In this document: in pieces, positions 17,999 through 58,438 of the stretch
Numbering within the stretch: position 1 is the stretch's first letter
Layout of the letters: each line of letters opens with the position of its first letter
Assembly: GCA_963719035.1 (NCBI GenBank)
Contig: CAVRAO010000002.1
Location: forward strand, 96,001-160,000
Length of the DNA stretch: 64,000 nt
Origin: Methanobacteriota archaeon
GTDB lineage: Archaea > Halobacteriota > Bog-38 > Methanoflorentales > Methanoflorentaceae
Reading direction: 5' to 3'
Translations under genes and position numbers: made by a program
The notes under the pieces: generated by a model
The model's input: the letters and a program-made list of their open reading frames with translations, nothing else
Told to the model about the DNA's origin: nothing
Database searches by the model: none

Positions 17999-18385
17999 CG
18001 CTTTGTTTACTATCTCTCAGTCATTCAAATCAGGTATCGTGTTAAGAGTTATCACATCTGTTTACGAGTTACTGCGCAGTGAAATAGTTCGTTGTGATAA
18101 TAGTGGCCCAGTCACATCTATAGTCAGCTATTTTAAATGATAAGCATAGGGCATTCAGATATTGAGGAATATTAACGTCTTGCGACTACATTTATCTACA
18201 ACTGAAACAAGGAGACTCAGTGAACGGAATGCTGCTTGTGATTTTTTTTAAAATGAGCCTAGCCTTGGTGTAGGAGTAATACCGCTTTAAGTTTTTTTTT
18301 GGGCTCCGTTCGAAGCCAATTGTTACTAAGTCGTTGTCCAAGTGAACGTGTAAAGCATTTATATGTGTTTAACATAGTATGCGTG

Positions 18386-18481
18386 GCCGCCGTGGCTAAG
18401 CTCGGCATAGCGGCTGATTCGTATTTGAGCGCTGCTCAAAGAATTATCAGCAGATCGAGGGTTCAAATCCCTCCGGCGGCT
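18386..18481 (+). tRNA. tRNA-Thr(CGT) with intron
   Basis: GCTGA-TT-CGT-A[TTTGAGCGCTGCTCAAAGAATT]A-TCAGC; GGTTCAAATCC; TATA-like TTTATA upstream. Confidence 0.92.
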
Positions 18482-18614
18482 TATTCAAAGTACTCATTAC
18501 CTTAAGACGCGTGCAATGCCGCGTCAATGTCTATGAAAGCATGAAGCAAAGAATCAATATAATGCGTGTGAAAATACATAAAGTTTATCATCCATAAAGG
18601 CAATCCGCAAAACG

Positions 18615-25369: not shown

Positions 25370-25453
25370 GCACCGATGGTCTAGTGGCTATGACTTGGGC
25401 CTTCCAACCCGTGAAGAAAGCCCACAACCCGGGTTCGAATCCCGGTCGGTGCA
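25370..25453 (+). tRNA. tRNA-Gly(TCC) with ~12-nt intron
   Basis: TGGGC-CT-TCC-A[ACCCGTGAAGAA]A-GCCCA; GGTTCGAATCC. Confidence 0.9.
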
Positions 25454-25996: not shown

Positions 25997-26617
25997 CTAT
26001 TTTCGTCCGATAATCTTCGTGCCTATAGTATCACGTCCTTGGATTGCGTCACGGACGCGCTGAAAATGCTGACCGTTCACAATCGTACAATCCAAGTCGT
26101 GCATGTCCAACAGGCGTGGAAGGAATGCATCGACGCACGTTTCCTCCCTGAGTTCGGGCGCTTCGATACGTGACACTACCTGGTTATTTATGACAATTCC
26201 ATCGACGTCTGTTGCTATGACGAGATTAGCATTGAGCTGGTGCGCTACCCAGCCGGCGATAGAGTCGGAGGTAGCCATCCAGGAGTGGGGAACTGGGTCT
26301 TTTTCATAAAGTATCTTGAACGGCAAAAGGATGCTTACTCCTTTTTTTAGCGTGCTAATATCCTCTATCATCGCCAGTTCGGGAGTTGTCAGATAGAAGC
26401 CGTATTGGTTCATCGCGAGAACGGCCATCCAATGGGCGGCGGTCTCATCGAGATGAGCTGTATACCGTCGGACGGTATCTGCAAATGGCCCTCCGCCAGG
26501 TACCACGAGCACGTCTACTTGGGCTTCAATTAGATAGTTAATCAGATCTTTGGAGACTGATATCAGACTGCCTCCAATCTTAAGAACTGTGTGCATCATC
26601 TGGCTCTCTATCATCAT
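25997..26617 (-). CDS. mfnE: Amino-acid-kinase family protein, MfnE-like (methanofuran biosynthesis)
   Basis: KIGGS, VPGGGPFAD, AHWMAV.AMNQ, PHSW..TSDSI. Confidence 0.82.
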   Translation of the reverse strand: MMIESQMMHTVLKIGGSLISVSKDLINYLIEAQVDVLVVPGGGPFADTVRRYTAHLDETAAHWMAVLAMNQYGFYLTTPELAMIEDISTLKKGVSILLPFKILYEKDPVPHSWMATSDSIAGWVAHQLNANLVIATDVDGIVINNQVVSRIEAPELREETCVDAFLPRLLDMHDLDCTIVNGQHFQRVRDAIQGRDTIGTKIIGRK

Positions 26618-27150: not shown

Positions 27151-27285
27151 TCACTTGCTGTTTTGAAACATCGCCTGATTGACGGCGTGAGTTAAGCGTT
27201 CTGCGCACACTCGACAGTCAGGATTCGTTACGCTAGGGCACCCGACATGAACCCCATAAAAGCACACGCTGTTTTCTGGGGTCAT
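27151..27285 (-). CDS. Cys/His micro-protein, 44 aa (family copy 1)
   Basis: MTPENSVCFYGVHVGCPSVTNPDCRVCAERLTHAVNQAMFQNSK; clear paralog at 35851..36030. Confidence 0.8.
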   Translation of the reverse strand: MTPENSVCFYGVHVGCPSVTNPDCRVCAERLTHAVNQAMFQNSK

Positions 27286-27290
27286 GGTAA

Positions 27291-27428
27291 TTATGTGACA
27301 TGCTCCTCGTGCTGGTAGCGATTAATATGCAACTGTGCTACCGTAGCATCAATTTGGATCATTGCGAGCAGCGTTTGTTCAATTAAAACAATGTCGCGTT
27401 CGAGTCTTGTTAGTTTCTCGTTTGCCAT
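27291..27428 (-). CDS. Hypothetical helical micro-protein, 45 aa
   Basis: MANEKLTRLERDIVLIEQTLLAMIQIDATVAQLHINRYQHEEHVT; SD GAGGTGA; TATA-like TTAAG upstream. Confidence 0.65.
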   Translation of the reverse strand: MANEKLTRLERDIVLIEQTLLAMIQIDATVAQLHINRYQHEEHVT

Positions 27429-27464
27429 CTCGGTCACCTCCGAATTAGACTGCGCAAAAAAGTC

Positions 27465-27524
27465 ACTTAAGACCGCGTGAGACACTACTTGTGTGCGAAA
27501 GTGTGACAACATTTTCGTGCCACG
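27465..27524. promoter_or_regulatory. Tandem candidate operator sites plus TATA box in a divergent promoter region
   Basis: GTGACA-ACATTTTCG-TGCCAC at 27503-27523; a second site ends TCAC-GCGGTC-TTAAG on the minus strand. Confidence 0.6.
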
Positions 27525-27628
27525 TAGTTAGCGTCCTAGAGCCGTGCAGCCGACAATCTATTGCTACCATAGCGAGTGCGAGATGAGAACTTACTTATAG
27601 GCGATATTTCCAGATGCATCTGAGATAG

Positions 27629-28507
27629 ATGCAAATGAGCCAGAAAGCGCGAGCGTACCTCACCCTTATGCGGCTGCCTTATATGCTCGTGCTCAGCTTT
27701 TTGTGCGTTCTCTTTATCGTTACTTTCCAAAAAGGGTTATACAACCCCGCGCTGATCGGTTTAGCCATTATCACCGTCGCGTTCACAAGTGCAGGAGGCG
27801 CGGCTATAAACGATTATTGCGACCGCGATTCAGACGCGCTTACGCATCCAGAAAGACCCCTCTCTGCAAATCACATATCTCCAGCACGCGCTGTGCAGTT
27901 TTCTGCGCTGACTTTTCTCGTAGCGCTTGGCGTCTCGCTGTTAATTAACCCCGTCGCTTTTGGCATTGTTGGACTAAATGTCGTGCTTTTCATTCTCTAT
28001 GCGCGTGTCATCAAGCGACTTTCCGGGTTCGTGAGCAACTTGGTTATGGGGTACCTGGGAGCAACGATTCCCATTTTTTCAGGAGCTGTTGTTTTTCAGA
28101 CAATCAACGCGGCGTCGCTATCGTTCGTTGGTTTGATTGCCGGAGGCGCGATTGGTTTGAATGTTCTCAAAGACATTTTGACTTTGGAGGGGGATCTTAA
28201 GGTGGGGTACCCTACCCTTGCGGCAAAACGGGGGATACGCGTTGCAGCGATCGTCGGCGCACTTTTTCTCCTTCTTTCTGCAATAACGTCGCCGTTGCCG
28301 TTTTTTGTGGGGGTTGTCAGCGTCGCCTACTTGGCCCCTATCGCCGTTTGGGGGGGCGTCGCTGTCGTTGTGTCGCTGACCCTCCTGAAAACATCAAACA
28401 CCGAAAAGATAGTAGAGCGGCTCGGGATATTCACGACATACTGGCCGCATGTTGTAGGGGTCGCCTGCGTTGCTTACGCCATTTTTTTTGCCGTTTTGGG
28501 GGTTTAA
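27629..28507 (+). CDS. UbiA-family prenyltransferase (DGGGP-synthase-like paralog)
   Basis: GGAAINDYCDRDSD..HPERPL, KDILTLEGD..GYPTL; multiple transmembrane helices. Confidence 0.9.
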   Translation: MQMSQKARAYLTLMRLPYMLVLSFLCVLFIVTFQKGLYNPALIGLAIITVAFTSAGGAAINDYCDRDSDALTHPERPLSANHISPARAVQFSALTFLVALGVSLLINPVAFGIVGLNVVLFILYARVIKRLSGFVSNLVMGYLGATIPIFSGAVVFQTINAASLSFVGLIAGGAIGLNVLKDILTLEGDLKVGYPTLAAKRGIRVAAIVGALFLLLSAITSPLPFFVGVVSVAYLAPIAVWGGVAVVVSLTLLKTSNTEKIVERLGIFTTYWPHVVGVACVAYAIFFAVLGV

Positions 28508-28578
28508 TTATATTAAAAGAGGCATCTAACCACGTAGGACCGGTTGCACAAAACCACACCGTTAAACACGATGATAAT

Positions 28579-29469
28579 TTGGAGCTTTATCTCAAACAGA
28601 TTACGAACATTTTTGATATATCGCGCATCATCGATGCGCCGTTAGACAAGGAGCAAATCATCAACTACTATTTAGCGAACAAACTTTCTTATCGATTAGG
28701 CCTCAACTGGGAAGGATTTTTGCATTGCGGGATTAGCTACGACGGAAAACACAAAAGCGGGGATTTCAGAGAACAAGCACGAATTATTGAGAAATATATC
28801 AAAAACAAGGGCGCCAAACAGGTATTAGAGCTTGCATATGGATTAGGTCCGAATTGTGCATTCCTCGCGAACCGCAACCCCCATGTGTTATTCGACGCAG
28901 TTGATATATCTAACAAGCCTTTACGGCGTTTTAAAAAGATACCAAATTTGAACTTTTATTTTGGCGATTACCACGATTTAAGCCAATTTGAAGATAATTC
29001 GTACGATGTTGTGTTCGTTATTGAGGCGTTTTGTTACTCAATGCAGAAATTAGAGGTCCTGCGCGAGGTCAAGAAAAAATTAAAAGAGAACGGTATTTTC
29101 ATTGTTTTTGATGCATACAAAAGAAATCGTGCGAACTTGCTGAGTCCGTCAGAGAAAACGATGTGGGATTTAGTTGTCAGAGGCAGTGCGCTTAACACGT
29201 TCGAACACGTTGACGACGTCGAGAGCGATATGGAAAAGGAATACTCAATCGTTCTATCGAAGGATCTTACGCAGTGTGTCCTACCCTCTCTAGAGGGACA
29301 AGAAGCCAAAGTGCGCTACTATTTTAATCATCCTGCGGTCGCCAAAGCCATCAACAAAGTCGTCCCGTTTGACGTTGTGAAACATCTTCCAATGGTATTA
29401 TTGATACCGACAAGCGTGCGAAGGCAGATTGGGTGCTATTACTTGCACGTGTTGCAAAAAAATCACTAA
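28579..29469 (+). CDS. Class I SAM methyltransferase, sterol/tocopherol-MT-like (start uncertain)
   Basis: VLELAYGLG motif I, GDYHDL..FEDNSYDVVFVIEAFCY, LKENGIF. Confidence 0.85.
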   Translation: MELYLKQITNIFDISRIIDAPLDKEQIINYYLANKLSYRLGLNWEGFLHCGISYDGKHKSGDFREQARIIEKYIKNKGAKQVLELAYGLGPNCAFLANRNPHVLFDAVDISNKPLRRFKKIPNLNFYFGDYHDLSQFEDNSYDVVFVIEAFCYSMQKLEVLREVKKKLKENGIFIVFDAYKRNRANLLSPSEKTMWDLVVRGSALNTFEHVDDVESDMEKEYSIVLSKDLTQCVLPSLEGQEAKVRYYFNHPAVAKAINKVVPFDVVKHLPMVLLIPTSVRRQIGCYYLHVLQKNH

Positions 29470-29825
29470 GCAGCTAGCCCCGTGTCGGCGCCCATCGAAG
29501 AACGGGCGCGTGTTTTTTTATTCGATCTTGCGCTTTCCAAACGTGTGCGGGTTATATTTACCGTTGTCGCAACTCGCCAGAGCAGAAGTTCAAGATTCGC
29601 TCGTTCCATTGGAATAAGATGTTAAACGAAGCAAAGGTGCACCCCCGCAAGAACTTCCACGCGACTGCAATCGCTGCTGCAAGGAGAGCGTTTGTAGGCC
29701 TCGGCAGAGCAGCAGACGCAAAATAAACGCGACAGAGACTTCAAATTGTTGCGTTAAGCTTGAACAGCTCGAGCGCGTTTATACCTTGCAATCCAAAATA
29801 AGAACTTGCTATATCAATGTGGGGA

Positions 29826-30662
29826 TCAAGCCCGCGGTGGGCCTTGCTTCAGCAATTCTTGGATTCGCTCTTCAGCCGGAACACCTTGCTCCCACAATAT
29901 TTCGAAAGTTGAGATAAGATAATCAGCGAATACAGGATCATCAGTGTAGAGCATGCTGAGCGGTTCATCGAGTTTTATGTGATTAATATCAATATTGATC
30001 GCACTGATGCACGTCTTTTTGTCAAAGACCCCAAAATACGCCCCACGGTAGTTTTCAATGTGACGCACGTCGGCGCCGATATCCAAGTGATAACGAATTA
30101 TGTCGACGATGCGATACGTCACGTCGGCAATACCTCGACACCGTCCTCCGCGCTCGATGAACTCTCTTTCAGCCTCAAGGATGCCAAATACTTGGCTCAT
30201 CTCAACTCCTTCACGATTTGATAGCCATAAGAACTCTTCTTCCGCGGAGACGAAGACGGGTAAGGCTGTGCTAATTACTTCTTTAAGGCTTTTCAGCATC
30301 TTGAACGTTGAAACTTCCTCTGAAGGTCGAAAGCGCTGCTCCTGTGCTAGGTCATGAAGCTCTCGCTTTCGTATCTCCATCTCGCGGAGCTCGCTCTCGT
30401 GTTTCTTCACTGCGGCGTCGAGTGCGGCATCAAGTTCTACCGCGGCGTAAATTGTTGGTGAATCGAGCGATGGGCGTACCATACCCTTTTCAATCAAGCT
30501 TGTAAGAGTGCGGTGCACGTCTTCTCGATATGTTTTCAAGGATTTCGCAAGCGGCGATGGGGTCTTTGGTCCATACTTAAGCAGGTGGAGATAGGCCTGC
30601 GCCTCCTTCTCGCTGAGCCCGAACCCTATGAGGCGCGTAACAAAGTCTGCCTCTTTGTCCAT
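29826..30662 (-). CDS. TrmB-like regulator (wHTH plus C-terminal sensor domain)
   Basis: FGLSEKEA.AYLHLLKYGP..TYREDVHRTL..KGMV, coiled coil, C-terminal domain ending TDDP..YL..FEILW. Confidence 0.9.
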   Translation of the reverse strand: MDKEADFVTRLIGFGLSEKEAQAYLHLLKYGPKTPSPLAKSLKTYREDVHRTLTSLIEKGMVRPSLDSPTIYAAVELDAALDAAVKKHESELREMEIRKRELHDLAQEQRFRPSEEVSTFKMLKSLKEVISTALPVFVSAEEEFLWLSNREGVEMSQVFGILEAEREFIERGGRCRGIADVTYRIVDIIRYHLDIGADVRHIENYRGAYFGVFDKKTCISAINIDINHIKLDEPLSMLYTDDPVFADYLISTFEILWEQGVPAEERIQELLKQGPPRA

Positions 30663-30771
30663 CAGACCAAAAGTGTAAGAGGGGGTAAATAAGCGTTGTG
30701 TGTAGCTTTCTAACTGTTCGTATACTGCACTCGCAACTCTTATATTAAGCCCTTTCACCACCAACTTTCAG

Positions 30772-31605
30772 TTAAGCCTCTGGCGGTCCCTCTTTCAGCA
30801 GCTGCTGAATCCGTTCCTCCGGGTCGATCGCTTGGTTCCACAACATCTCAAAGGTGGAAGTGAGGTATTGGGCATACGTCGGGTCATCGGTCCAGAGTCC
30901 GGAGACAGGCGCGTTGAGTGATATACGCTTGATTTCTGCATTGATCGCGCTTATAGAGATTTTTTTGTCAAATATGACGAACATGATCCCGTGCTGATCT
31001 ATATGGCGCACTTCTTCACCAATGGATATCATTTCTCGCACCGGCTCAATGACTTGATACGAAATGTCGATGATGGCCCGCACCTTTCCCCCGCGCTTGA
31101 TAAATTCAGATGCAGCTTCGTTAACTCCAAAGAGGGAGGCGAAAACAGTTAGGATCGCAGGAGCGGCTATCAGCCATTCCTCTTGCAACGCGTCAAGTAA
31201 GGGCATAGAGACGGCGATGAGCTCTTTCATACTCTTTATGATCTTGAACGTGCTCACTTGATCGGAGGGCTGGAATCGTTGTTTTTGCGAAAGCTCTTGT
31301 AACTCCTGCTTTCGTGCCTCCATCTCACGCAATTCGCTCTCTTGCTTATTGAGCGCTGCTCCAAGCGCTGTGTCGAGGTCTACAGCTGTGTAGATTGTCG
31401 GTGCCTCTAGCGAAGGACGCACCATACCCTTATCGATGAGACCTGTGAGCGTCCGATGCACGTCTTCACGATATGTCTTCAGCGATTTGGCGAGAGGAGA
31501 GGGGGTTTTAGGGCCGTACTTGAGCAGATGAAGATAAGTTCGTGCCTCTTTCTCGCTGAGCCCGAAGCCAATGAGGCGGGTGACAAAATCGAATTCGTCG
31601 TCCAT
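30772..31605 (-). CDS. TrmB-like regulator
   Basis: Same HTH (TYREDVHRTL) and WTDDPTYAQYL..FEMLW. Confidence 0.9.
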   Translation of the reverse strand: MDDEFDFVTRLIGFGLSEKEARTYLHLLKYGPKTPSPLAKSLKTYREDVHRTLTGLIDKGMVRPSLEAPTIYTAVDLDTALGAALNKQESELREMEARKQELQELSQKQRFQPSDQVSTFKIIKSMKELIAVSMPLLDALQEEWLIAAPAILTVFASLFGVNEAASEFIKRGGKVRAIIDISYQVIEPVREMISIGEEVRHIDQHGIMFVIFDKKISISAINAEIKRISLNAPVSGLWTDDPTYAQYLTSTFEMLWNQAIDPEERIQQLLKEGPPEA

Positions 31606-31633
31606 GGTCGCACCACTTGTCCCGTAAACGTTT

Positions 31634-32104
31634 CTATAGCTCTAGCAATATCTTTTTCGCGTCAAGTGCTCCATTCCATTCAAAATCAAAGGTTGACATC
31701 AGATAATCGGTGTATGATTGGTTATCGGTCCAAAACGCTCTTAACGCATCATCGAGCGAAAGCCCCTCCAAGTCCAGATAGATCGAACTGATACTTTCTT
31801 TCCTATCCCCGACTACCATAAACGCGCCTTGGTAACGATCAACGTGGCGGATTTCCTCACCGATGTCCACGAGCCGTTGTATGACTTTACTGTAAACGCC
31901 TGTTATTTTCGTGATACCCCTGACCCGTCCGCCGTTTTCTATCAACGTCTGGCATTTATTCGTTAAACCGAATTGTTCGGAGAAGATTAACATTTCCGGT
32001 GGGAGAAGCCACACTATCTCGTTCTTTGCAGATTCTATAATGTTTGAACCGACAGCTAACGCGTCTGTGACGCTTTCAATAATAATCTTCTCAGCCATAA
32101 TCAT
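31634..32104 (-). CDS. Stand-alone TrmB-type sensor domain (no HTH)
   Basis: Aligns with the C-terminal half of its neighbours: GGRVRGI, GEEIRH, GDRK, FWTD..Y..YL..F..EW. Confidence 0.85.
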   Translation of the reverse strand: MIMAEKIIIESVTDALAVGSNIIESAKNEIVWLLPPEMLIFSEQFGLTNKCQTLIENGGRVRGITKITGVYSKVIQRLVDIGEEIRHVDRYQGAFMVVGDRKESISSIYLDLEGLSLDDALRAFWTDNQSYTDYLMSTFDFEWNGALDAKKILLEL

Positions 32105-32234
32105 CGAATTTGTTCTAAACTTATAAAAATTATGACCCTAACAGTCCAAGTAGTAGTCGCCGATTCTTACACCTTAGGAGTACCCAAAAAAATCCCATTT
32201 GAGCGTTGTTCTCTCGCGAGCTTCTTTATATGTC

Positions 32235-32714
32235 TTACGGGCCTTGTTCCAATAATTCGCGTATCCGCTCTTGTGCATCAACGCCTTGTGCCCACGCCTG
32301 ATCGAAATGTGACAGAAGATACTCGGCGTAAGTAGGGGCCTCGCTCCAGAATGCAACAACCTGATCATCAAGCGAGAGGGCTTCTACGTTTACGTGCATG
32401 GAGCTTATGCTTTGCTTCTTATCTCCAACGAGGAAAAACACCCCTTCGTAATGATCGACGTGGCGCAAGTCTTCGCCTATATCTAAGAGTGATTGCGCCA
32501 GCTCGGCATACAAAGGTGATATATGGAAAATGCTTCGTATATAGCCCCCATTTTCTATCAGAATTTTTGACTTTTTGGTTATGCCGTATTGGGCAGCGAA
32601 GACCACCATCGCGGGGGGGAGAAGCCACACTATTTCGTTCTTTGCAGATTCAATAATGCTTGAACCGACAGCTAACGCGTCCTTAACACTGTTAATAATT
32701 GTCCCCTTAGCCAT
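32235..32714 (-). CDS. Stand-alone TrmB-type sensor domain (no HTH)
   Basis: DALAVGSSIIESAKNEIVWLLPP nearly identical to 31634..32104; GEDLRH, FWSE.PTYAEYL. Confidence 0.85.
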   Translation of the reverse strand: MAKGTIINSVKDALAVGSSIIESAKNEIVWLLPPAMVVFAAQYGITKKSKILIENGGYIRSIFHISPLYAELAQSLLDIGEDLRHVDHYEGVFFLVGDKKQSISSMHVNVEALSLDDQVVAFWSEAPTYAEYLLSHFDQAWAQGVDAQERIRELLEQGP

Positions 32715-32872
32715 TACTCACACTAGCGTTCTCGAGTTTATAAAGCTGTGTGACACCGTGTGCTTCGCGTATCAGAATGAGGTTAAAAAAGTATAACATA
32801 ATCGTCAGAACGGTCTACCTCGTCGATATTTACGGTGATGTGACCACTACTAAACAATTGCAGTCTTACAAA

Positions 32873-33341
32873 TCATCCTAGCGAAGGAAATGTTCGATCA
32901 GCAACTGGAACTGACTTTGTCCACGCTGCTCTAAAGGAGGAAAAGAGATACGCAGCGTAAATAGGGTCATCAGTCCAATATGCAACGAGTTGGTCATTGA
33001 GCACGAGATCCTCTGTGACAGGGTTTATCGAACTGACGCTCTCTGTCTTATCGCGCATAAAAAAAGCACTTCTTGTGGGTTATTGACAAGGCGTACGTCT
33101 TCACCGACGTCCAAGAGCTCGCGCACTGTGTCAATGTAATAGAATGAGAGACTCGTACTGCCCCCTACGTGACCTCCGCGCTGCACGAGGTGCTGCCTCT
33201 CTTCCTAAGCTATATTGTGAGGCAAAGCTTAAAACGCAAGGTGGGGCGACGTACGCGATTTCAGTCTCTGCAGCTTATAAATATCTGTCCTGCTATCACT
33301 AAAAAGTCATTGACGCTGTCAACAGTCTTCCCAAAAACCAT
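32873..33341 (-). pseudogene. Third stand-alone sensor-domain gene, frameshifted (pseudogene or sequencing error)
   Basis: MVFGKTVDSVNDFL.. start, VRELLDVGEDVRL in another frame, then YWTDDPIYAAYL..F..AW. Confidence 0.7.
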
Positions 33342-33452
33342 GGCTTCTAGATTCTCAATCTTTGACGCCTATAAATAAAGATATGCCACAGACGCTTGTT
33401 ATAAGGTACAAATTGACCAGGAAAAAAGCAATGATGCTTATAAACGCCGCCC

Positions 33453-34289
33453 TCAAGCCAGCGAAGGTGGGTGTTGCTGAAGTTCTTTTATTCGTTGTGC
33501 AGCAGGGATTGCCTGTCTCCATAAGACATCGAACGTAGCGCCGAGATATTCCGCATAGGTCGGATCATCACTCCAGAGCACCGCAATGTGTTCATTGAGT
33601 GACATACGCCGTATATCGATGTTAATCGCTGTAAGACAAGTTTTTCGATCAACAACGCCAAACGTGATGCCCCGGTAATGATCGAAATGGCGGAATTCTT
33701 CGCTAATGTCTAGCATTTCTTGCATCAATTCGATTCCTGAATATGAGATGTCTGTTATAGCTCGAGTGCTCCCACCACGCTCAACAAATTTCCTGACTTC
33801 TTCAGTGATGCCGAATAGCGACGCAAAGGTAACGATCTCTTGCGGCACGATCAATAGAAATTCATTTTGCGCCAAGTTTATGAGGGGCAGTGTGACACTA
33901 ACGAGTTCTCCGAGACTTTTGATCAGCTTGAACGTCGTAACCTCATTAGACGGACTAAACCGTTGGTGCGTTGAGAGTTCAGCAAGCTCTTGCTTTCGCG
34001 TTTCCATCTCGCGTAGCTCGGTCTCCTGCTTCTTCAGCACGCTTTCGAGAGCCTGTTCAAGGTCAACCGCTACATAGGACGTGGGAACGCCAAGCGAGGG
34101 ATGTACCATACCTCTCTCTATTAGACTGCTCAGCGTGCGGTGAACGTCCTCGCGATATGTCTTCAGTGATTTCGTGAGCGGTGCGGTCGTCTTTGGGCCG
34201 TATTTAAGCAGGTGGAAATAGAGACGTGCCTCTTTCTCGCTAAGTCCAAACCCCATGAGGCGAGTGATAAACGTCTCCTCAGAATACAT
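33453..34289 (-). CDS. TrmB-like regulator
   Basis: TYREDVHRTL; WSDDPTYAEYL. Confidence 0.9.
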   Translation of the reverse strand: MYSEETFITRLMGFGLSEKEARLYFHLLKYGPKTTAPLTKSLKTYREDVHRTLSSLIERGMVHPSLGVPTSYVAVDLEQALESVLKKQETELREMETRKQELAELSTHQRFSPSNEVTTFKLIKSLGELVSVTLPLINLAQNEFLLIVPQEIVTFASLFGITEEVRKFVERGGSTRAITDISYSGIELMQEMLDISEEFRHFDHYRGITFGVVDRKTCLTAINIDIRRMSLNEHIAVLWSDDPTYAEYLGATFDVLWRQAIPAAQRIKELQQHPPSLA

Positions 34290-34462
34290 AATCGTTCAGC
34301 TTAGCGGCCAGGATATATTTAAATTTCGAGCTTGGTTAACGTCCTTACAGATTTGAGTTGTACTGTTATAACGTTTTGCCTTGCGTTTGGTGAGACCGGC
34401 GGTTTCACTTAAACTACTAGTTAATTATAGCCCTGTCAAGGGTCGCTTGCATCGCCTCCTAG

Positions 34463-35821
34463 CTAGATCCTCGTCAAAGAGGGCTGCAGCGCAGCCGTGT
34501 ATCCTGTTGTAGAAAGCGTCTTATCCGCAGGTTCTAGAGAGGCTTCGTGACGGGGGTCCTGTTGCAGTTGCTGATTTATGTAATCTTCTGCGTTGATTGC
34601 TTTCGTCCAAGTCATTTCAAATGCGCTCGTAAGAAATTCTGCTTGCGCTATGCTGTCGCTCCACAACGCCGCGACATTTTCATCCAGTGAAAGTGCGGTT
34701 TTCTGATCGGCGTAAATGAGGCTTATGCTTCGTTTGCCGTCAGCGATAACCATCGTCATTCCACAGTAGTGGTCTTTGTGTCGCAGTTTTACTCCACAAC
34801 TGGGGTACTCACGGGCCACTAAAGCGTTCATTGGGTAGATATCGAGTACGCCGCGGACGCTTACACCTCGTGCAACAGCACATCGCAATTGATTCTGAAA
34901 GCCGCCCATTGAAATGAGGTTGAATCGAGGATGGGCGATTAGAATAATGGAAGCCTCTGCCGAGTTAATTAGCTGTGATATGGTAGTTACGAGTTCCCCA
35001 ACGGTTTTTACCAGCTTGAACGAGCTATTTGCGTTCTCTCTTCGCCAGAGCGTAACGCTAGCGTCTTCGACAACCTTTTGCTTGACCCTTTGCAAAAAAC
35101 GAAGTTCGTGCTTGTGGGCACGGAGCACGTTGTTGAGCGCCCCGTCAAGTTCGACTGGTATATAACGTGATGAATCTTCTGATGTTTTTGTTGCTACGCC
35201 GATATCAATTAAGCGTGCGCACCTCCGATAAACGTCCTCGCGATACGTTTTCAGAGATCGCGCAAGTTCGCCTGCCCGCTTCGGTCCGTACCTCAGCAAG
35301 TGCACGTACAACTGCGCTTCTTTCTCATTAAGCCCAAACGCGGTCAATAATTGTATGAGGGCCCGATCGTCGTCAATCGCAAGCGTTTCAGGTGGTAGGG
35401 CATCATCTTTGAGACTTAGCGGTATGCCATTCACACGCTCAAGGAGCTCCACCCTTATCTTCTCCATCTCACGAATCTCGCGCTGGCGGGCGAGGAGCAC
35501 GTAGTTGAGCGCTTTGTCTAGATTCACCGCCGAGTAAACGGTGGGGCTCTCTTTCTTCTCGCTCACTATGTTCTTGTTAATAAGGGTTGTAAGCTTTCGA
35601 TAGACGTCCAAACGATACGTTTTCAGAGATCGCGCAAGTTCGCCTGCCCGCTTCGGTCCGTACCTCAGCAAGTGCACGTACAACTGCGCCTCCTTCTCAT
35701 TGAGCCCGAAGTCGTTGAGCGTTTTTATGATCGATTCTGTGCCGTTTGCACGTGGTATTCCGCGGTGAGCGCTCGGAGTGGAAAACACGTTAGGCACAAA
35801 ACCATCTCGTTCACCGTTCAT
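34463..35821 (-). CDS. TrmB-like regulator with two tandem wHTH modules
   Basis: FGLNEKEAQLYVHLLRYGPKRAGELARSLKTYR occurs twice, then one sensor domain. Confidence 0.88.
   Translation of the reverse strand: MNGERDGFVPNVFSTPSAHRGIPRANGTESIIKTLNDFGLNEKEAQLYVHLLRYGPKRAGELARSLKTYRLDVYRKLTTLINKNIVSEKKESPTVYSAVNLDKALNYVLLARQREIREMEKIRVELLERVNGIPLSLKDDALPPETLAIDDDRALIQLLTAFGLNEKEAQLYVHLLRYGPKRAGELARSLKTYREDVYRRCARLIDIGVATKTSEDSSRYIPVELDGALNNVLRAHKHELRFLQRVKQKVVEDASVTLWRRENANSSFKLVKTVGELVTTISQLINSAEASIILIAHPRFNLISMGGFQNQLRCAVARGVSVRGVLDIYPMNALVAREYPSCGVKLRHKDHYCGMTMVIADGKRSISLIYADQKTALSLDENVAALWSDSIAQAEFLTSAFEMTWTKAINAEDYINQQLQQDPRHEASLEPADKTLSTTGYTAALQPSLTRI
35241..35689. repeat. 77-bp exact direct repeat (35241-35317 and 35613-35689) encoding the duplicated HTH
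   Basis: CGATACGTTTTCAGAGATCGCGCAAG...GTACAACTGCGC identical in both copies. Confidence 0.9.
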
Positions 35822-35850
35822 CTCTTTCTTACCTACCTTCCGTAGCAGCG

Positions 35851-36030
35851 TCAAGATGACGCATTTTCTGTGCGCGGTGCTTCAATTGTGCTCACTGCTG
35901 TATCGTGTGCGTAGTTTACTGCGTTTGTGAGCCTCTCTGCGCAGCGCCGACAGTTAGGATCACGTCCGGCGCACAGGCATCCGAAGTGAACGCCATAGTA
36001 GCATCCCGCATCACTAGCTAAAACGGTCAT
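35851..36030 (-). CDS. Cys/His micro-protein, 59 aa (family copy 2)
   Basis: MTVLASDAGCYYGVHFGCLCAGRDPNCRRCAERLTNAVNYAHDTAVSTIEAPRTENASS; SD GAGGGG; paralog of 27151..27285. Confidence 0.8.
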   Translation of the reverse strand: MTVLASDAGCYYGVHFGCLCAGRDPNCRRCAERLTNAVNYAHDTAVSTIEAPRTENASS

Positions 36031-36060
36031 AACCCCTCAATTCAAAAAGGGAAAAAGAGG

Positions 36061-36098
36061 GTATAAGGTCGCGTGAGTACAATTATTTGTCACACATA
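36061..36098 (-). promoter_or_regulatory. Candidate operator plus TATA box
   Basis: Minus strand GTGACA-AATAATTGT-ACTCAC-GCGACC-TTATAC. Confidence 0.6.
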
Positions 36099-36191: not shown

Positions 36192-37163
36192 CTACTCGTT
36201 TTGAACCAGCTGCGCAACTGCAAATGCTGGGAATACGTTCGAAAGCGCACGTCCGTATTGCTGTGAGAGTAGTCGAAATTCAAGTCCTGCGTTCACGGCG
36301 GCCTTGGCAATGAGAAACTCTCCGAGGCCTGCTCCGATGACCGTGTGTAACTCGTACTCCCGTGCCTGAAACGCCAGTGCTTCTGCAAGCTCGTTGATCT
36401 GCGCGCGTTCCACCTGCCTGGCAACCTCGTGCGTATTTTCCCTGCCAAGTTCGCTTACATCGCAAAGCAGGACTCGCGCAATTCTTTTATAACACGCCTT
36501 AAGATCGCGTGATTGAGAATCAGGTGAGTCGCAGGCGTAATCTGCTTCGTCTATGTTGCCTAGCACGCGGTGCACGTCTGCGGTGATCGAAAACAGTTCC
36601 GTGGAGAGCTTATACTTCTTGCCGCTAAGGTTTACAACGCGTAAAATGGTCGCGATGTTGGTTCTGAGTACGCCCGTATAGATGAGTTCGTACTGTCCCA
36701 ATCGGTCAAAGTCCATAGTTCGGGCGATCGACTTGCCATTCTTTATAGGAATGATGTCGGACGTCGTGCTTCCAACGTCTGTGAATATGCAGTCTTTGAC
36801 GCTCGTTGCGAGAAAGGCGGCAGAGGCCGCCCAATTTGACGCAGCGTATAAATGGGCGTCTTCTTCTGCGATACCTTGGGTTAGCTCTCCGTAAACATTC
36901 AGATAGCACGGCTTAGCAAAGACTGAGTTGACAGCAGCAGCTATAGAACAAATCCCTTCTTTCTTGCTCGTAAAAGCGTCGGCTAACTCTCCTGTAATAA
37001 CGATTCCTACGCGCTCTGGCCGAAACTCATCTTTTACGCGCCGTAACAAGCCTGCGAGGTTGTTCTTCCTCCACAGCGGCAAGTAAAAGCTACTCGCGGT
37101 TCCGCTCGCAGAAGCAACTTTCGTATTCGCTCCACCGATGTCGATTCCGATTGTTTGGGCCAT
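36192..37163 (-). CDS. mfnF: Hydantoinase/oxoprolinase family protein, MfnF-like
   Basis: GIDIGGANTK, TGELADAF..K.EG, AASNW, DVGSTTSDIIP. Confidence 0.85.
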   Translation of the reverse strand: MAQTIGIDIGGANTKVASASGTASSFYLPLWRKNNLAGLLRRVKDEFRPERVGIVITGELADAFTSKKEGICSIAAAVNSVFAKPCYLNVYGELTQGIAEEDAHLYAASNWAASAAFLATSVKDCIFTDVGSTTSDIIPIKNGKSIARTMDFDRLGQYELIYTGVLRTNIATILRVVNLSGKKYKLSTELFSITADVHRVLGNIDEADYACDSPDSQSRDLKACYKRIARVLLCDVSELGRENTHEVARQVERAQINELAEALAFQAREYELHTVIGAGLGEFLIAKAAVNAGLEFRLLSQQYGRALSNVFPAFAVAQLVQNE

Positions 37164-37169
37164 AGGGTT

Positions 37170-38057
37170 TCAAAGATAGTGATTGCTGCCGCAATTTGTT
37201 CTTAAGAACGTATGTATACCATGTGGTTTTAGGAGAGTTGGCAGTTTCTTTCCTAATCGCGCTTTAAGAATTAGATCTGCCACGTTGCCGATCACCTTGT
37301 CGATGCTTACTATCGCCGTTGTAGGACGCGGATTCACATCGACTATGTTCACGATGCCGTCAGGCTGTAACACGATGTCAACGCCAACGTACCCTTTGCA
37401 TCCTAGCAACTGTGCGGCTCTCGAGGCTTGATCGATAACTCCGCTCCCGTTCGGAACGGAATAAGGAGATGTATTACCCAAATAATGGATAGTCGAATCG
37501 ATGCGAACGTGCTGTTTGTTGATCGATAGAGGCAGTATCGTTCTTCCAACAATGAGGCTCACGCTTATGTGCTCCCCAGAGACAAATTTGGAGACAAGCG
37601 TGTTCTCGTTGATGTCATCTGGTTCGAACGTTTCGACGATGTGAATTCCCTCTGCGCCACAGCCGTCCCGAGGCTTTAAGATGTACGGGCCAGTTGGGGG
37701 ATTTATTTCAGGAACGGTCAGTGATCCACGCAAAAGCACCATAGAGGCGGTGAGTTTGTCTGCCGCTTTCTTAACCGCTTCTGCAGGACACCCGAGATTC
37801 GTTGTGTGTTGTTCAACGAGTGCCGTGAAATCATAAAGGACGTTGTCAGGAGTTATGACGAGTCCTGCATCGCACACTTGTGCAAGACGCTCCACCTGCG
37901 TATAAAACGCGCTTGCATCGCCCTTTTTCGGTAGTGGCATGAGCACTGAATGTCCGCCTTTTTGGAAGCCTGCTTCGAGGGTGCGCAACATCGCGCCCCC
38001 CTCTTCGGCGAGGTGGGGGGTCATTACGCTTGCGTACTCGGCTAGTAGTATGTCCAT
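37170..38057 (-). CDS. mfnD: ATP-grasp tyramine--glutamate ligase, MfnD-like
   Basis: EGGAML, KPRDGCG, GYVGVD, DVNPRPTT. Confidence 0.83.
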   Translation of the reverse strand: MDILLAEYASVMTPHLAEEGGAMLRTLEAGFQKGGHSVLMPLPKKGDASAFYTQVERLAQVCDAGLVITPDNVLYDFTALVEQHTTNLGCPAEAVKKAADKLTASMVLLRGSLTVPEINPPTGPYILKPRDGCGAEGIHIVETFEPDDINENTLVSKFVSGEHISVSLIVGRTILPLSINKQHVRIDSTIHYLGNTSPYSVPNGSGVIDQASRAAQLLGCKGYVGVDIVLQPDGIVNIVDVNPRPTTAIVSIDKVIGNVADLILKARLGKKLPTLLKPHGIHTFLRTNCGSNHYL

Positions 38058-53798: not shown

Positions 53799-54009
53799 CG
53801 ACGTACTCTCACGCTACACGCTTCACTTGAGAATAAGGACCTCCGCATAGTATAGAATTTATGCTTTAGCACGGCTAAGAAGAGGTGCAAAATTAGCACA
53901 AGTTAGCCCGAGTTATCCTAAACAGGTATGCAAAGCTGATAGGCAAGAACATTCATCCTCACACATTCTGGCATAAGTTTGCCATCAATAGCGTAAGGCA
54001 CGGATTTGT

Positions 54010-54123
54010 AATACGCAGACCACCTTATGCCATTATGCTCTTCTTTCCTGGGAGCTAAGGATGTGCCTGACGACAGAACCAAATTGCCAATTAAGCCCTG
54101 GCACATCCTCCCCCTTTGTCTAA
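54010..54123 (-). ncRNA. Candidate structured RNA / dispersed repeat, copy A
   Basis: Homologous to 63347-63460; stem GGATGTGCC...GGCACATCC around GCTTAATTGGCAATTTGG. Confidence 0.45.
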
Positions 54124-54293
54124 GCAAAGACTGTGCTGACGAATTTGCGGCTGAATTTCATGAAAGAGCCAATATGTGACGGATAAGGTAGTAAGAGCAG
54201 ATAAAGCTTTTTAACGACGTAAAAAGGAAAAGGAGCGCGAAACGCTCCATATTAGGAACCATTGCCGGCTTCAGTGCAGCTAAGGGTTGTGAC

Positions 54294-54587
54294 TTAAGGA
54301 AGACCCTTAATTATTGCTATTCCTTCTGCTTCTGGAAGCGCCTTCAATGTCTCTAAACTTGCCATTCCGGCGCTCGTTATCGTGAGCACTGCTTTCGCCA
54401 TTGCCTCGTCGCTCGGAGCTTCAACAACTACCACCATATCATATTCCCCAAAGACAAAGTGGATTTGTTTAATCTCTCCGCCGACGGACTTGAATATCTC
54501 TTTAGCGCTTTCTATTCGTTGCGGCATGTCCTTCACTTTCTCAATTCCTGCTTGCGTAAATTTATGAAGCAAGATGTAGCTTGGCAT
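54294..54587 (-). CDS. GYD-domain protein
   Basis: KFTQAG..R..GG..FGEYDMVVVVEAP..ETLKA. Confidence 0.85.
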   Translation of the reverse strand: MPSYILLHKFTQAGIEKVKDMPQRIESAKEIFKSVGGEIKQIHFVFGEYDMVVVVEAPSDEAMAKAVLTITSAGMASLETLKALPEAEGIAIIKGLP

Positions 54588-54790
54588 TTTGATGTAGCCT
54601 CCATTTTTTTAGTAGTGAGCGTTTTGAGCGATCAGACCATTAGCGTTTGCGCTGTATTGCGCGAGAAATGTGTGCAAGAGCCGCCGTCGGAAGTGATAGA
54701 ACGAGATAAGAGCCAAGAGGTAATCGCTTCTAACTACTTCCACACCGCGCTTCCTAATCGTTTACACCCCATGTTTTACTACACTAATGC

Positions 54791-55048
54791 GTGCGCGACG
54801 ATTGTCTCCAGGTCGATGAGCTCCTATTGCAGCTGGCGGACTACAAGAACGACTACGCGGACGTAGCCGCAGCAAAACTTTTAAAGAAGTGCTCTACCAG
54901 TTGGAAAGCCTATCGATATCTACAGGACCGCGTTCACGATGCCTGGCTGCCTGATAACGCCCGGCAGCAGGTTCGACAGATTATCAAAAAGATACAGGTG
55001 CAGATACACCAGCAGCGCGAATACAGCTGGACGTATCAACAGCCGTGA
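54791..55048 (+). CDS. Hypothetical protein
   Basis: 85-aa ORF with protein-like composition; no recognised motif. Confidence 0.45.
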   Translation: MRDDCLQVDELLLQLADYKNDYADVAAAKLLKKCSTSWKAYRYLQDRVHDAWLPDNARQQVRQIIKKIQVQIHQQREYSWTYQQP

Positions 55049-55477
55049 GCGTGCAAAATAAAAGTTTTGCTAGTTTGTTAGCCATAAAACTACACGCAAC
55101 AAACTGAGAGGAAGGTTCTTCAAGCAAGTATCAGCGACGAAGGCTAGGGGCACACTAAAAATTTGAGGTAAATACCCTAGTTTGGCCAAGAGTATATAAA
55201 CGGCCCCTTGCCTTCGAACGTGGTTGTTATCATACGATATTTTAATACGCGTGACAAGTTTTTGTCACACATCAACGCCCGTGAAAAGTGGGCGCCCCTC
55301 TCGAAGGGTAAAGTCGACATGAAAAACTAAGGTGTAACGCTTTAAAAAATGTCTGGACCGTAGTCGCTTTTTGAAATAACGCCCAGTGTGACGTTATTAT
55401 CGTCGACAGAAAAAACCGATCACGATATTATGAGGCGTGATTCATGTACAAAGTACTGAAAACGTAGGAGGGAACAA

Positions 55478-55639
55478 ATGATTGAGAAGGGACTGATCTT
55501 AACCGGCAGCGATGCGGACGTATTGAGCAGTGCGCTTTCAGAAGTGAAAACGATAGTCTATAAAAAGGCAGGAACTCAATTAGATGATAGCCAAGCGCTC
55601 GATGCGCTCGTTTCGTATTTCCTTAATGCCGAAAGATAG
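55478..55639 (+). CDS. Hypothetical micro-protein, 53 aa
   Basis: SD GGAGGG; MIEKGLILTGSDADVLSSALSEVK..DALVSYFLNAER. Confidence 0.6.
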   Translation: MIEKGLILTGSDADVLSSALSEVKTIVYKKAGTQLDDSQALDALVSYFLNAER

Positions 55640-55820
55640 ACAAAAAGAGAAGTTTCACTTGTATTTTAGCCCCTTACGTAAGCGCCTGGTGCTCGGCACG
55701 ATTATTGAGGGGACAGTCGTAAAGCCTGATCGTGGCCAGGAACTGCTCGATCTAAGTTAGATAGCTGGGTCATCTATGGAGTGGCATTACCTAAAAGCAC
55801 GAAGTAAATGGTGACAAAAA

Positions 55821-55997
55821 ATGAACTGTGAAGAAAAACTAAAAATCCTGATGGATGCTTGTGAGAAGGCATTAATGTACGGGTGGGAAGATAACTTCAA
55901 TTGGAGCAAGGATAAACCAGAAGAATTTTGGGATGAAGAAGAAGCGTGGATTGCAATAAAAGAAGCGTTTGTTAAAGTAAAAGGTGACAAAAAATGA
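55821..55997 (+). CDS. Virus-like hypothetical micro-protein, 58 aa
   Basis: SD GGTGA; MNCEEKLKILMDACEKAL..KGDKK; stop overlaps the next ATG. Confidence 0.7.
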   Translation: MNCEEKLKILMDACEKALMYGWEDNFNWSKDKPEEFWDEEEAWIAIKEAFVKVKGDKK

Positions 55998-56263
55998 GTG
56001 ACACAGATAAAGAAGTCCTTAAAAAAGTATTAGAACTTTGTGAGAAAGGAATCGATCAGGCGAGAAAAGATGCAACAAATTCTGTTGGTACTGCCGAATC
56101 TTATGCGAATGGTCAAGCCGTTGCATATATGACAGTCGTTGAACTAATCATGCGTATGAAGCAAGAAGTCACTCTAGATTATAAAGAGGCGTGGGATTCT
56201 CTAGTAAACACGAAGAGCATCAAATCGATAAAAGAAGAATGGAGTGAAGGCGACAAAAAATAA
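55994..56263 (+). CDS. Virus-like hypothetical protein, 89 aa
   Basis: SD GGTGA, ATGA coupling, SYANGQ..AY motif, ends EGDKK. Confidence 0.72.
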   Translation: MSDTDKEVLKKVLELCEKGIDQARKDATNSVGTAESYANGQAVAYMTVVELIMRMKQEVTLDYKEAWDSLVNTKSIKSIKEEWSEGDKK

Positions 56264-56620
56264 TAAGTGCAGCAATAACGAAAACAACGATAGCAATTAC
56301 CACAACGAAGGCGGCGGCATTCGTTTTTATAGTCAATCCTATCCTGCGTACCAGCCTCCCTGCCGATTTATGGTATTTGGACTTAAGCAGAGAGCTGGCC
56401 CCGCATTGTTGTACAGCTAGCGCCTAGAGCAATAACGCCGTGTAGCCGCTTATTCTTCATAAATCCGTTATTCGTTTGCTGCTTGGCCACACGTGCTGAC
56501 CGGGGCCTAATACAGGCTCTGACTAACTCTTTAATAAACCAGCTGCCTCCACTAGTTAAAAAACGAGTTCGGCGTCCCTGCCAAAACGAATTAATAGCAG
56601 GTCAATTCTGGATACTGACT

Positions 56621-57013
56621 ATGGATAGTGAGGGGTCAAGAAGGAAATTCGAAAATATCGGCGATTACATCGCTACGTTTCCTAAGAATGTTCAGCACAC
56701 GCTCAGGGAGCTGAGGAGTGCAATCAAAGAATCGGCGCCTGAAGCTGAAGAAACCATTAGTTATGGAATGCCCACCTTCAAGCTCAATGGTAACTTAGTA
56801 CATTTTGCCGCCTATGAGAAGCATATCGGGTTCTATCCAACCCCTTCCGCCATTCTTGCTTTCAAGGAGAAATTATCCATTTATAAGCAATCAAAAGGAG
56901 CGGTTCAATTTCCAATCGATGGGCCGATTCCGTTAGATATTGTAAGGGAGATGGTCAGGTTCAGAGTAAAAGAAAATCTGACAAAAGGTGCAAGAAGGAG
57001 AAAAAAGGACTGA
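56621..57013 (+). CDS. DUF1801 / YdhG family protein
   Basis: APEAEETISYGMPTF..HFAAYEKHIGFYP..KGAVQFP. Confidence 0.9.
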   Translation: MDSEGSRRKFENIGDYIATFPKNVQHTLRELRSAIKESAPEAEETISYGMPTFKLNGNLVHFAAYEKHIGFYPTPSAILAFKEKLSIYKQSKGAVQFPIDGPIPLDIVREMVRFRVKENLTKGARRRKKD

Positions 57014-57094
57014 GACTGAGCTGACTTGTTCAAAAACGCTACTTTTATCCTCCGCTGCACTTTAACTAGAACTAACTAAACAAGAGGTGGAATA

Positions 57095-57232
57095 ATGACA
57101 GAAGACGATAAGAACGAAATCATAAAGTGCACTGTCTCGTGCCCCGAGTGTGGTGCTGAGATGGTCTGCACGCACGAAGACCCAAAACACGAAGAGAAGC
57201 ACAGGTGTGAAAAAGGCCACGTGTGGACCTGA
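57095..57232 (+). CDS. CPxCG zinc-finger micro-protein, 45 aa
   Basis: SD GAGGTGG; MTEDDKNEIIKCTVSCPECGAEMVCTHEDPKHEEKHRCEKGHVWT. Confidence 0.72.
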   Translation: MTEDDKNEIIKCTVSCPECGAEMVCTHEDPKHEEKHRCEKGHVWT

Positions 57233-57300
57233 AGAAAGCTTTAATATCAATACACAGCTAGTAAGCTGTGCTGCGTCAAGCGGCCATTACGCTTGTGCAT

Positions 57301-58414: not shown

Positions 58415-58438
58415 TTTATTCACGCCTTTTCTAGCAGC

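Follow-up and report, generated by a model that had tools for sequence, protein, structure and literature searches.

The 64,000-nucleotide stretch of DNA analysed here (the window: positions 96,001 to 160,000 of contig CAVRAO010000002.1, assembly GCA_963719035.1, from an archaeon of the Methanoflorentaceae) carries at positions 27151-36030 an island of genes for TrmB-family regulators, cysteine-rich micro-proteins, and a UbiA-family prenyltransferase paired with an S-adenosylmethionine (SAM)-dependent methyltransferase (MT). All coordinates are positions in the window unless a contig is given; loci are denoted by L numbers, genomes by G numbers (G000 being the genome of the window) and contigs of a genome by C numbers. 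Open-reading-frame (ORF) listing and family scans gave two micro-protein genes, micro1 and micro2, the UbiA-MT pair, four regulator genes, TrmB1 to TrmB4, and, lacking a helix-turn-helix (HTH) domain, two intact and one broken copy of the regulators' C-terminal domain. The regulator series is encoded by the minus strand and converges with the MT gene, in the order TrmB1, TrmB2, CTD1, CTD2, HTH-less remnant, TrmB3 and TrmB4, with micro2 at its head, and a divergent intergenic region of 200 nt separates the orf45-micro1 gene pair from UbiA.

Most of this inventory had been proposed in an initial annotation made from the sequence, and it was largely borne out. The two micro-protein genes that bracket the island are paralogous (tblastn E 2e-8 between micro1 and micro2), the UbiA and SAM methyltransferase pair was recovered by matches to PF01040 and to Methyltransf_31/11/25, and the three further family members announced at 59.5-62.6 kb were found as TrmB5, the HTH-less CTD3 and TrmB6 (Table 1). 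The count of three HTH-less copies in the island held for CTD1 and CTD2; because the stretch 32873-33186 is frameshifted, the count becomes two intact copies and one pseudogene.

Table 1. Positions of the island features and of the second regulator cluster in the window
Feature	Position	Strand	Evidence and remarks
micro1, 44-aa four-Cys micro-protein	27151-27285	-	ORF; second gene of two-gene operon
orf45, 45-aa helical small ORF 5' of micro1	27291-27428	-	Shine-Dalgarno GGAGGTGA before ATG
orf45-micro1 promoter/operator	27468-27523	-	box CTCACGCGGTCTTA at 27468-27481 (proximal); palindrome GTGACA-N9-TGCCAC at 27503-27523 (distal)
UbiA promoter	27588-27621	+	TATA-like TTACTTATA, then palindrome AGATGCATCT (27612-27621)
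UbiA-family prenyltransferase	27629-28507	+	PF01040, E 3.7e-30
Class I SAM-dependent MT, lineage-specific family	about 28522-29469	+	Methyltransf_31/11/25/12
TrmB1, TrmBL2-type regulator	29826-30764, probable start 30662	-	PF01978; alignment; convergent with MT gene
TrmB2, TrmBL2-type regulator	30772-31605	-	PF01978; AlphaFold model; TrmBL2 fold match
CTD1, stand-alone PLD-like domain	31634-32104	-	aligns to regulators' C-terminal domain; no Pfam match
CTD2, stand-alone PLD-like domain	32235-32714	-	aligns to regulators' C-terminal domain
Operator-TATA composite TGTCACACAGCTTTATAA	32738-32755	-	23 nt 5' of CTD2 start codon
Third HTH-less copy, frameshifted remnant	32873-33186	-	two ORF pieces in different frames; tblastn matches to C-terminal domain
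TrmB3, TrmBL2-type regulator	33453-34289	-	PF01978; alignment
TrmB4, two tandem wHTH plus PLD-like domain	34463-35854, probable start 35821	-	two PF01978 stretches; directly 3' of micro2
micro2, 59-aa four-Cys micro-protein	35851-36030	-	first gene of operon running into regulator array
micro2 promoter/operator	36064-36093	-	box CTCACGCGACCTTA at 36064-36077 overlaps degenerate palindrome at 36073-36093
Type-2 four-Cys micro-protein, 48 aa	58606-58752	-	same Cys spacing class; beyond the list of the initial annotation
Perfect palindrome GTGACA-N9-TGTCAC	58839-58859	not assigned	about 90 nt 5' of type-2 micro-protein gene
TrmB5, TrmBL2-type regulator	59471-60307	-	alignment
CTD3, stand-alone PLD-like domain	60532-61017	+	alignment; divergent from TrmB5
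TrmB6, divergent TrmBL2-type regulator	61692-62555	+	alignment; long branch in tree

TrmBL2-type regulators and stand-alone PLD-like domains

All four island regulators carry the winged helix-turn-helix (wHTH) domain PF01978, with scores of 50.7-89.6 bits against a gathering cut-off of 25.6. An AlphaFold model of TrmB2, built from a 25-row alignment (predicted local distance difference test score, pLDDT, 77.7, with the C-terminal domain mostly above 90), found TrmBL2 (5bpi/5bpd, E 4.6e-14 to 2.4e-13) as its top Foldseek matches, followed by Zucchini, NucT and Nuc. The matches to Zucchini, NucT, Nuc and PLD3 had template modelling (TM) scores, by target, of 0.62-0.75 for the single-domain members, which identifies the phospholipase D (PLD) fold. 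The non-catalytic PLD-like folds of MITD1 and FAM83, proteins that bind membranes or partner proteins, were also among the matches. The family profile aligned end to end with TrmBL2 (positions 13-260 with residues 13-261, hmmsearch E 7.8e-8), and the architecture is likewise that of TrmBL2, a wHTH, a coiled coil and a single PLD-like domain in about 264-280 aa, without a sugar-binding subdomain. With its C-terminal part, the family profile also aligned to MitoPLD. The profile of the C-terminal domain by itself likewise matched MitoPLD (E 5.8e-7), and in that alignment, where MHHKFAIVDK of MitoPLD pairs with 'yrgilfvvvDk', conservation extends to the Asp and the S-x-x-N region after it but not to the His and Lys, and the catalytic H-x-K-x4-D motif is absent from the PLD-like domain. 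The TrmBL2 fold and profile matches, together with the loss of the catalytic residues, argue for TrmBL2-type regulators in which the PLD-like domain is probably non-catalytic, as in TrmB. A nuclease or defence role for these domains was considered and dropped because the His and Lys fail to align with MitoPLD; the PLD/HKD nucleases (Nuc, NucT, Zucchini/MitoPLD) share the fold, the Asp and the S-x-x-N with the island domain but not its lack of the catalytic His and Lys.

The features of the sugar-sensing TrmB and TrmBL1 proteins, a full PF11495 effector-binding domain and linkage to sugar-transport or glycolytic genes, were not found. PF11495 gave a partial, sub-threshold match (18.7 vs 22.2 bits) in one of the four island regulators, all of which fall far under the NCBIfam equivalog cut-offs for TrmB, TrmBL1 and TrmBL2, and no sugar-transport gene was found in the island among its ORFs or by Pfam and NCBIfam, in agreement with the initial annotation, which had reported none in the island. 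TrmBL2 of Pyrococcus and Thermococcus (5bpd, 5bpi, 5box) has the same wHTH, coiled-coil helix, single PLD-like domain and length class, and likewise lacks a sugar-binding subdomain. At about 19% identity to TrmBL2, however, the island family is set apart by at least 11 paralogues per genome, stand-alone C-terminal domains, a double-wHTH form and an associated palindrome, whereas TrmBL2 is single-copy and described as broad in its DNA binding (PMC4158304).

The genome of the window holds at least 11 full-length TrmBL2-type copies. In the six full-length paralogues of the window, the TYREDV segment of the recognition helix is identical in 6/6, and mean pairwise identity is 63% in the wHTH vs 36% in the C-terminal domain, which upholds the initial description of four TrmB-like regulators with a conserved recognition helix and diverged C-terminal domains. 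The double-wHTH regulator TrmB4 has orthologues of 455-463 aa at the same position in three other genomes (G009, G010 and G017). The HTH-less genes adjoin full-length regulator genes, as seen by tblastn and in the neighbourhoods, and encode precisely the PLD-like domain and nothing more, starting at the domain boundary of the alignment. Plant microProteins and Id-type dominant-negative partners are similarly encoded by separate genes as single-domain paralogues of multi-domain transcription factors, retaining the domain for pairing but not the one for DNA binding, and by analogy with these the stand-alone PLD-like domains may pair with the full-length regulators.

A family of four-Cys micro-proteins

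The type-1 micro-protein family has about nine loci in the genome of the window, two of them identical (C5 and C12). The stretches C5:1-4844 and C12:42460-47277 of G000 carry identical ORF sets including the micro-protein gene, and whether this is a true repeat or an artefact of assembly changes the copy count by one. A type-2 subtype occupies five loci (window 58606-58752, C6:211832, C13:55309, C8:4787 and C8:180336), each behind a palindrome described below, so that both subtypes together come to about 14 copies of about 50 aa each. The type-2 copies in the window, on C6, on C13 and at C8:180336 share a conserved stretch of about 150 nt located between operator and start codon. Across 36 aligned members from this and other genomes, four cysteines are invariant in the pattern C-x7-C-x8/9-C-x2-C, a Tyr and an A-E-R-L-x-x-A-V helix are also common to all, and the N-terminal 45 residues are conserved while the C-terminal tails vary. 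The initial label of Cys/His micro-proteins had to be given up, the pattern being Cys4, because His is replaced by Arg in several copies.

Nucleotide diversity at the three codon positions was 0.157/0.140/0.446, and single-base codon differences numbered 10470 synonymous vs 2858 non-synonymous, a contrast inflated by the collection of the copies by protein pattern; from these values and the four invariant cysteines, the ORFs look coding. No Pfam or NCBIfam family matched the micro-proteins. Their profile matched 162 database proteins at E <=0.001, and among the 120 of these that were listed, none has a Pfam domain and each either lacks a name or is annotated as 'hypothetical protein'; a protein atlas search gave a best score of 0.87 (guide 0.9), to unnamed clusters. 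By these profile searches, the micro-proteins are a new family. An AlphaFold model shows a beta-hairpin followed by a helix, at low confidence (pLDDT 57.7). The C(P)XCG zinc-finger micro-proteins of Haloferax volcanii are likewise tiny four-Cys proteins with many copies per genome (PMC6562870, PMC11241148). The island proteins differ from them in their Cys spacing, in which the two C(P)XCG motifs are absent, in showing no sequence relation to them by Pfam or NCBIfam, and in having genes that share a palindromic operator and are linked to TrmBL2-type regulators; zinc binding by the island proteins is putative.

Homologues of orf45, the small ORF upstream of micro1, were found by tblastn beside micro1-type genes at eight loci (L023, L024, L026, L061, L080, L081, L092 and L094) and a paralogue, read by eye, lies 5' of the micro-protein copy at C2:592991-593167. 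A 73-aa reading of this ORF (27291-27512, start 27512) was rejected because it overlaps the conserved promoter, and the 45-aa form has the Shine-Dalgarno sequence GGAGGTGA. In L022-L026, an orthologue of micro2 immediately precedes the double-wHTH gene. At C12:214583-215106 of G000, a micro-protein promoter (palindrome, TCACGCG box and TATA) with the first codons M-D-V-M-A-T drives a 145-aa protein.

By analogy with fungal a-factor or ComX, the micro-proteins might be precursors of modified peptides that UbiA and MT tailor by prenylation and methylation, with the regulators controlling production. The many scattered paralogous small genes with a conserved N-terminal part and variable tails would suit such precursors, as would the one micro-protein operon that is divergent to UbiA-MT in the window's own genus. 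However, the conserved part contains both the cysteines and the predicted helix, as a folded domain would, many copies stop 6-10 residues past the conserved core, and no C-terminal Cys motif is present. Further, neither the ORFs of the island nor their Pfam matches included a protease or transporter gene, the majority of micro-protein genes have no UbiA or MT gene anywhere near them, and UbiA-family enzymes are not known to act as peptide prenyltransferases. We therefore regard this explanation as extremely improbable.

A palindromic operator at micro-protein and HTH-less genes

The 14-mer box CTCACGCGRYCTTA occurs in 8 exact copies in the 2.19 Mb genome, and 8/8 lie about 35-40 nt 5' of the start of a micro-protein operon. 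The window carries the box upstream of both island micro-protein genes, at 27468-27481 and 36064-36077, confirming the initial claim that each lies behind the same operator-TATA motif. Upstream of the box, the palindrome GTGACA-N9-TGTCAC has 10 perfect copies in the genome, compared with 0-1 perfect copies for each of the other spacers (5-8, 10-13), and all 10 precede micro-protein genes, 7 of type 1 and 3 of type 2. The two island palindromes themselves are imperfect, with 1 mismatch at 27503-27523 and 2 at 36073-36093. The design of a micro-protein promoter, which is strongly conserved, is a palindrome plus a TCACGCG box fused to the TATA element. In other species, a palindrome with at most one mismatch was present in 31/45 loci and a box with at most one mismatch in 37/45.

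A related arrangement, TGTCAC-N3-9-TATA, was found in 13 of the 23 unique upstream regions of HTH-less genes, and in the genome of the window TGTCAC-plus-TATA precedes 4/6 HTH-less copies at 22-24 nt before the ATG, a position that suggests leaderless transcripts. The looser TGTCAC-TATA pattern has 37 occurrences in 4.38 million positions. Full-length regulator genes had the operator in 1/34 unique upstream regions, so general autoregulation is not supported, and a YCACRTAC motif upstream of these genes proved not to be general (2/34). The initial annotation had placed the whole island under one shared operator, and this held for the micro-protein genes and the HTH-less genes but not for the full-length regulators or the UbiA-MT pair.

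Palindromic operators are known from the TrmB family. The family's proteins bind palindromes at or 5' of the transcription factor B recognition element (BRE)/TATA box (PMC4158304), TATCAC-N5-GTGATA and TACT-N3-AGTA being examples from TrmB, TrmBL1 and Tgr. These proteins have the same PF01978 wHTH as the island regulators, which differ in lacking a sugar-binding subdomain and neighbouring sugar-transport genes and in the half-site and spacing of the associated operator.

Distribution and conserved gene order

Of 23 other genomes from the same archaeal family, 20 carry the micro-protein family, both genera being represented, with 1 weak match in 377 others sampled from the phylum, and the profile of the C-terminal domain matched 23/23 family genomes strongly and in many copies, with 13 weak matches in the 377 others. 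Five family genomes had 14-40 regulator matches each. The MT family was present in 18/23 same-family genomes, with 2 weak matches in 17 others, and UbiA homologues of at least 44% identity were confined to the family. Within the set of genomes searched, a single archaeal family thus accounts for the micro-protein, MT and UbiA-paralogue families and for the expansion of the regulators. Genes for UbiA, MT and the regulators are each present in more copies in the sister genus.

The whole island was syntenic in 5 of the 45 micro-protein-anchored loci of other species (L022, L023, L024, L026 and L061) and, by coordinates, in G009, G010 and G017. A regulator gene follows the micro-protein gene on the same strand in 13/45 loci, and at the C8 locus of the window's own genome the order is micro-protein, regulator, HTH-less gene. 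Within 1.5-kb flanks, the MT-anchored loci had a TrmB-family gene in 23/30, UbiA in 10/30 and no TrmB-family gene in 7/30, and the order UbiA, MT, convergent TrmB recurs in both genera (own genus: L069, L070, L071, L080, L091 and L094; sister genus: L089, that is, G021). The co-occurrence of the components, which the initial annotation had put forward as a check, was thereby supported by the island synteny, the triad and the MT-TrmB adjacency; because several loci overlap (L075/L086, L077/L088, L073/L094, L082/L095 and L074/L092) or are orthologous, from related genomes, the adjacency counts overstate independent support.

The UbiA-methyltransferase pair

The UbiA protein scored 105.5 bits against PF01040 (cut-off 34.2) and carries the Asp-rich motif NDYCDRDSD (NDxxDxxxD). 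Its closest solved chain is digeranylgeranylglyceryl phosphate (DGGGP) synthase 6m31 (E 5.1e-21), with which it shares NDxxDxxxD, but it lies far under the score of the DGGGP synthase equivalog NF009521 (139.7 bits, cut-off 296) and is paired with a lineage-specific MT. The sole other UbiA homologue of its own genome, C2:579744-580445 (30% identity), was taken as the housekeeping copy. By these comparisons, the island UbiA is a divergent paralogue of DGGGP synthase. The MT matched the class I families Methyltransf_11/25/31 with 46.3, 45.8 and 40.7 bits, above their cut-offs, and gave weak NCBIfam matches to lipid and small-molecule O-methyltransferases.

The promoter of UbiA, TTACTTATA followed by AGATGCATCT in the region of the transcription start, is conserved in genus relatives and is distinct from the micro-protein operator. 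AGATGCATCT has one other genomic copy, in an unrelated context, and is essentially unique. When the window is compared with the relatives L080, L092, L094 and L023, some species have another perfect palindrome, AGAAGCTTCT, in place of AGATGCATCT between the TATA box of UbiA and its start codon, and this symmetric change suggests that a separate dimeric regulator has a site here. The initial annotation had described UbiA-MT as divergent from one operator. This fits the positions in the window, but among relatives the spacing between the micro-protein operator and the UbiA start ranges over 90-250 nt, or no operator is present within 260 nt, and because its distance varies or it is missing, the operator is assigned to orf45-micro1. 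The UbiA paralogues that have multiplied in the sister genus have genes for a radical SAM protein and a geranylgeranyl reductase as neighbours; by coordinates, those of G018 and G022 are mostly 15-22 kb away from MT or regulator genes. Given this lipid-gene context, the kinship with DGGGP synthase and the separate housekeeping UbiA, the simplest reading is that UbiA-MT is most likely a membrane-lipid-type prenyl/methyl modification pair, either a regulated target or metabolically linked.

These results bear directly on the circuit first proposed for the island, in which UbiA and MT make a methylated prenyl signal that the PLD-like domains of many regulators read, converging on the shared operator. 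The conservation of the UbiA-MT-TrmB triad in both genera speaks for it, as do the MT-TrmB adjacency in convergent and divergent arrangements, the joint rise of UbiA, MT and regulator copy numbers in the sister genus, and the presence of the non-catalytic folds of MITD1 and FAM83 among the fold matches. The pair, however, has its own promoter and palindrome, the micro-protein operator does not keep its distance from UbiA, the sister-genus paralogues belong with lipid biosynthesis genes, and the full-length regulator genes, the supposed receptors, are themselves largely without the operator. The 'receptor' would be a PLD-like fold lacking the catalytic His and Lys, with a hypothetical ligand pocket, and MT-adjacent regulators do not form one clade, there being no dedicated MT-linked clade in the tree, in which locus truncation may mislabel some rows. 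The likeness to LuxI/LuxR is one of logic only, as no autoinducer synthase or receptor Pfam family was found among 10 island proteins at E 0.01. On these points, the synthase-receptor circuit is not supported, and we consider it distinctly unlikely. A fuller form, a self-contained network confined to the family in which the PLD-like domains of more than 10 regulators sense the UbiA-MT lipid, stand-alone domains serve as decoys, and the palindrome switches zinc micro-protein effectors, we hold to be very unlikely.

A proposed transcription-factor network

By a modest measure, we favour the interpretation that the island forms the centre of a transcription-factor network specific to the lineage, in which TrmBL2-type paralogues bind a shared palindrome, their PLD-like domains pair, and the micro-proteins serve as zinc-binding outputs or cofactors. 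Dimers of the paralogues, having one common recognition helix, would bind the palindromic operator. Under their control would then stand the genes for micro-proteins and HTH-less domains, together with any regulator gene transcribed jointly with a micro-protein gene ahead of it. The TCAC-plus-TATA arrangement would give repression through promoter occlusion. Single-domain PLD-family proteins such as Nuc act as dimers, and the stand-alone PLD-like domains may likewise pair with their counterparts in full-length regulators, titrating or re-tuning these. The micro-proteins would be outputs or cofactors that probably bind zinc, and UbiA-MT would be a conserved neighbour with a separate operator, a regulated target or metabolically linked. 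No paper on this module was found in the literature on Bog-38, in searches that did not include the operator sequence itself.

Several observations weigh against this network. No regulator gene adjoins the micro-protein gene in 32/45 loci, and the operator, to which some other factor could bind, is missing from full-length regulator genes unless a micro-protein gene precedes them (1/34). In the tree, regulators adjacent to MT genes are dispersed, with 9 changes vs a shuffled mean of 10.3 and 115/500 shuffles as low, and the adjacency counts carry the overlap among loci described above. The micro-protein fold model is of low confidence, and zinc binding is probable as judged from the Cys spacing. 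In addition, TrmBL2 is described as a DNA-compacting chromatin protein whose binding covers coding as well as intergenic regions and is not tied to one motif (PMC4158304).

This last point leads to a different explanation, in which the regulators would be chromatin or silencing proteins like TrmBL2 and have no specific operator, an unrelated factor would bind the palindrome, and co-duplication in variable regions would account for the clustering with micro-protein genes. TrmBL2 is indeed the closest structural and sequence relative, the full-length genes have no operator, and the paralogues turn over fast and do not track their neighbours. One sister-genus cluster would also fit: at about 1161-1165 kb of G018:C1 (L104:15137-17152, L105:10-1059), genes for a DnaB-like helicase and a family A DNA polymerase lie beside two regulators and three tandem MT genes, a context that may be that of a mobile element. 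However, more than 10 paralogues with an invariant recognition helix yet diverged, sensor-like domains would be unusual for a bulk chromatin protein, and the recurrent series of micro-protein gene, regulator gene and HTH-less gene on one strand, whose two flanking promoters both carry operators, fits local control. We thus judge the chromatin explanation to be rather unlikely and retain the operator-centred network as the working interpretation.

Flanking genes and other features of the window

The island is flanked by genes for an MfnE-like kinase (25997-26617) and an MfnF-like protein (36192-37163), both identified by NCBIfam as similar to methanofuran biosynthesis genes and both under the equivalog cut-offs. 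An ATP-grasp-like ORF follows the MfnF-like gene (stretch 36192-38057). An Rfam scan of the window gave tRNAs only. Two tRNA genes (18385-18482 and 25370-25453) have odd anticodons and extra length by ARAGORN, score as tRNA in Rfam, and are probably intron-containing archaeal tRNAs. Just before the second regulator cluster, the region 53900-58500 has a lower G+C content (0.44-0.46), many small ORFs and a tRNA-Asp gene (57301-57374); among the small ORFs at 54-57 kb, GYD, DUF1801 and nitroreductase were the sole Pfam matches. The region may be an integrated mobile element.

Significance

To our knowledge, nothing is known of gene regulation in this uncultured methanogen group. The family Bog-38, equated with Ca. 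Methanoflorentaceae (Rice Cluster II), comprises abundant hydrogenotrophic methanogens of northern peatlands, according to a preprint (10.1101/2025.08.21.671631). The locus gives a concrete and very specific cis-element, with 10/10 perfect sites at one gene family, and it offers a natural case of transcription-factor paralogues side by side with copies that lack the DNA-binding domain. The proposals made here lend themselves to in vitro tests for which no culture of the organism is needed, and the lipid link, if true, would tie membrane chemistry to transcription in a key methane producer.

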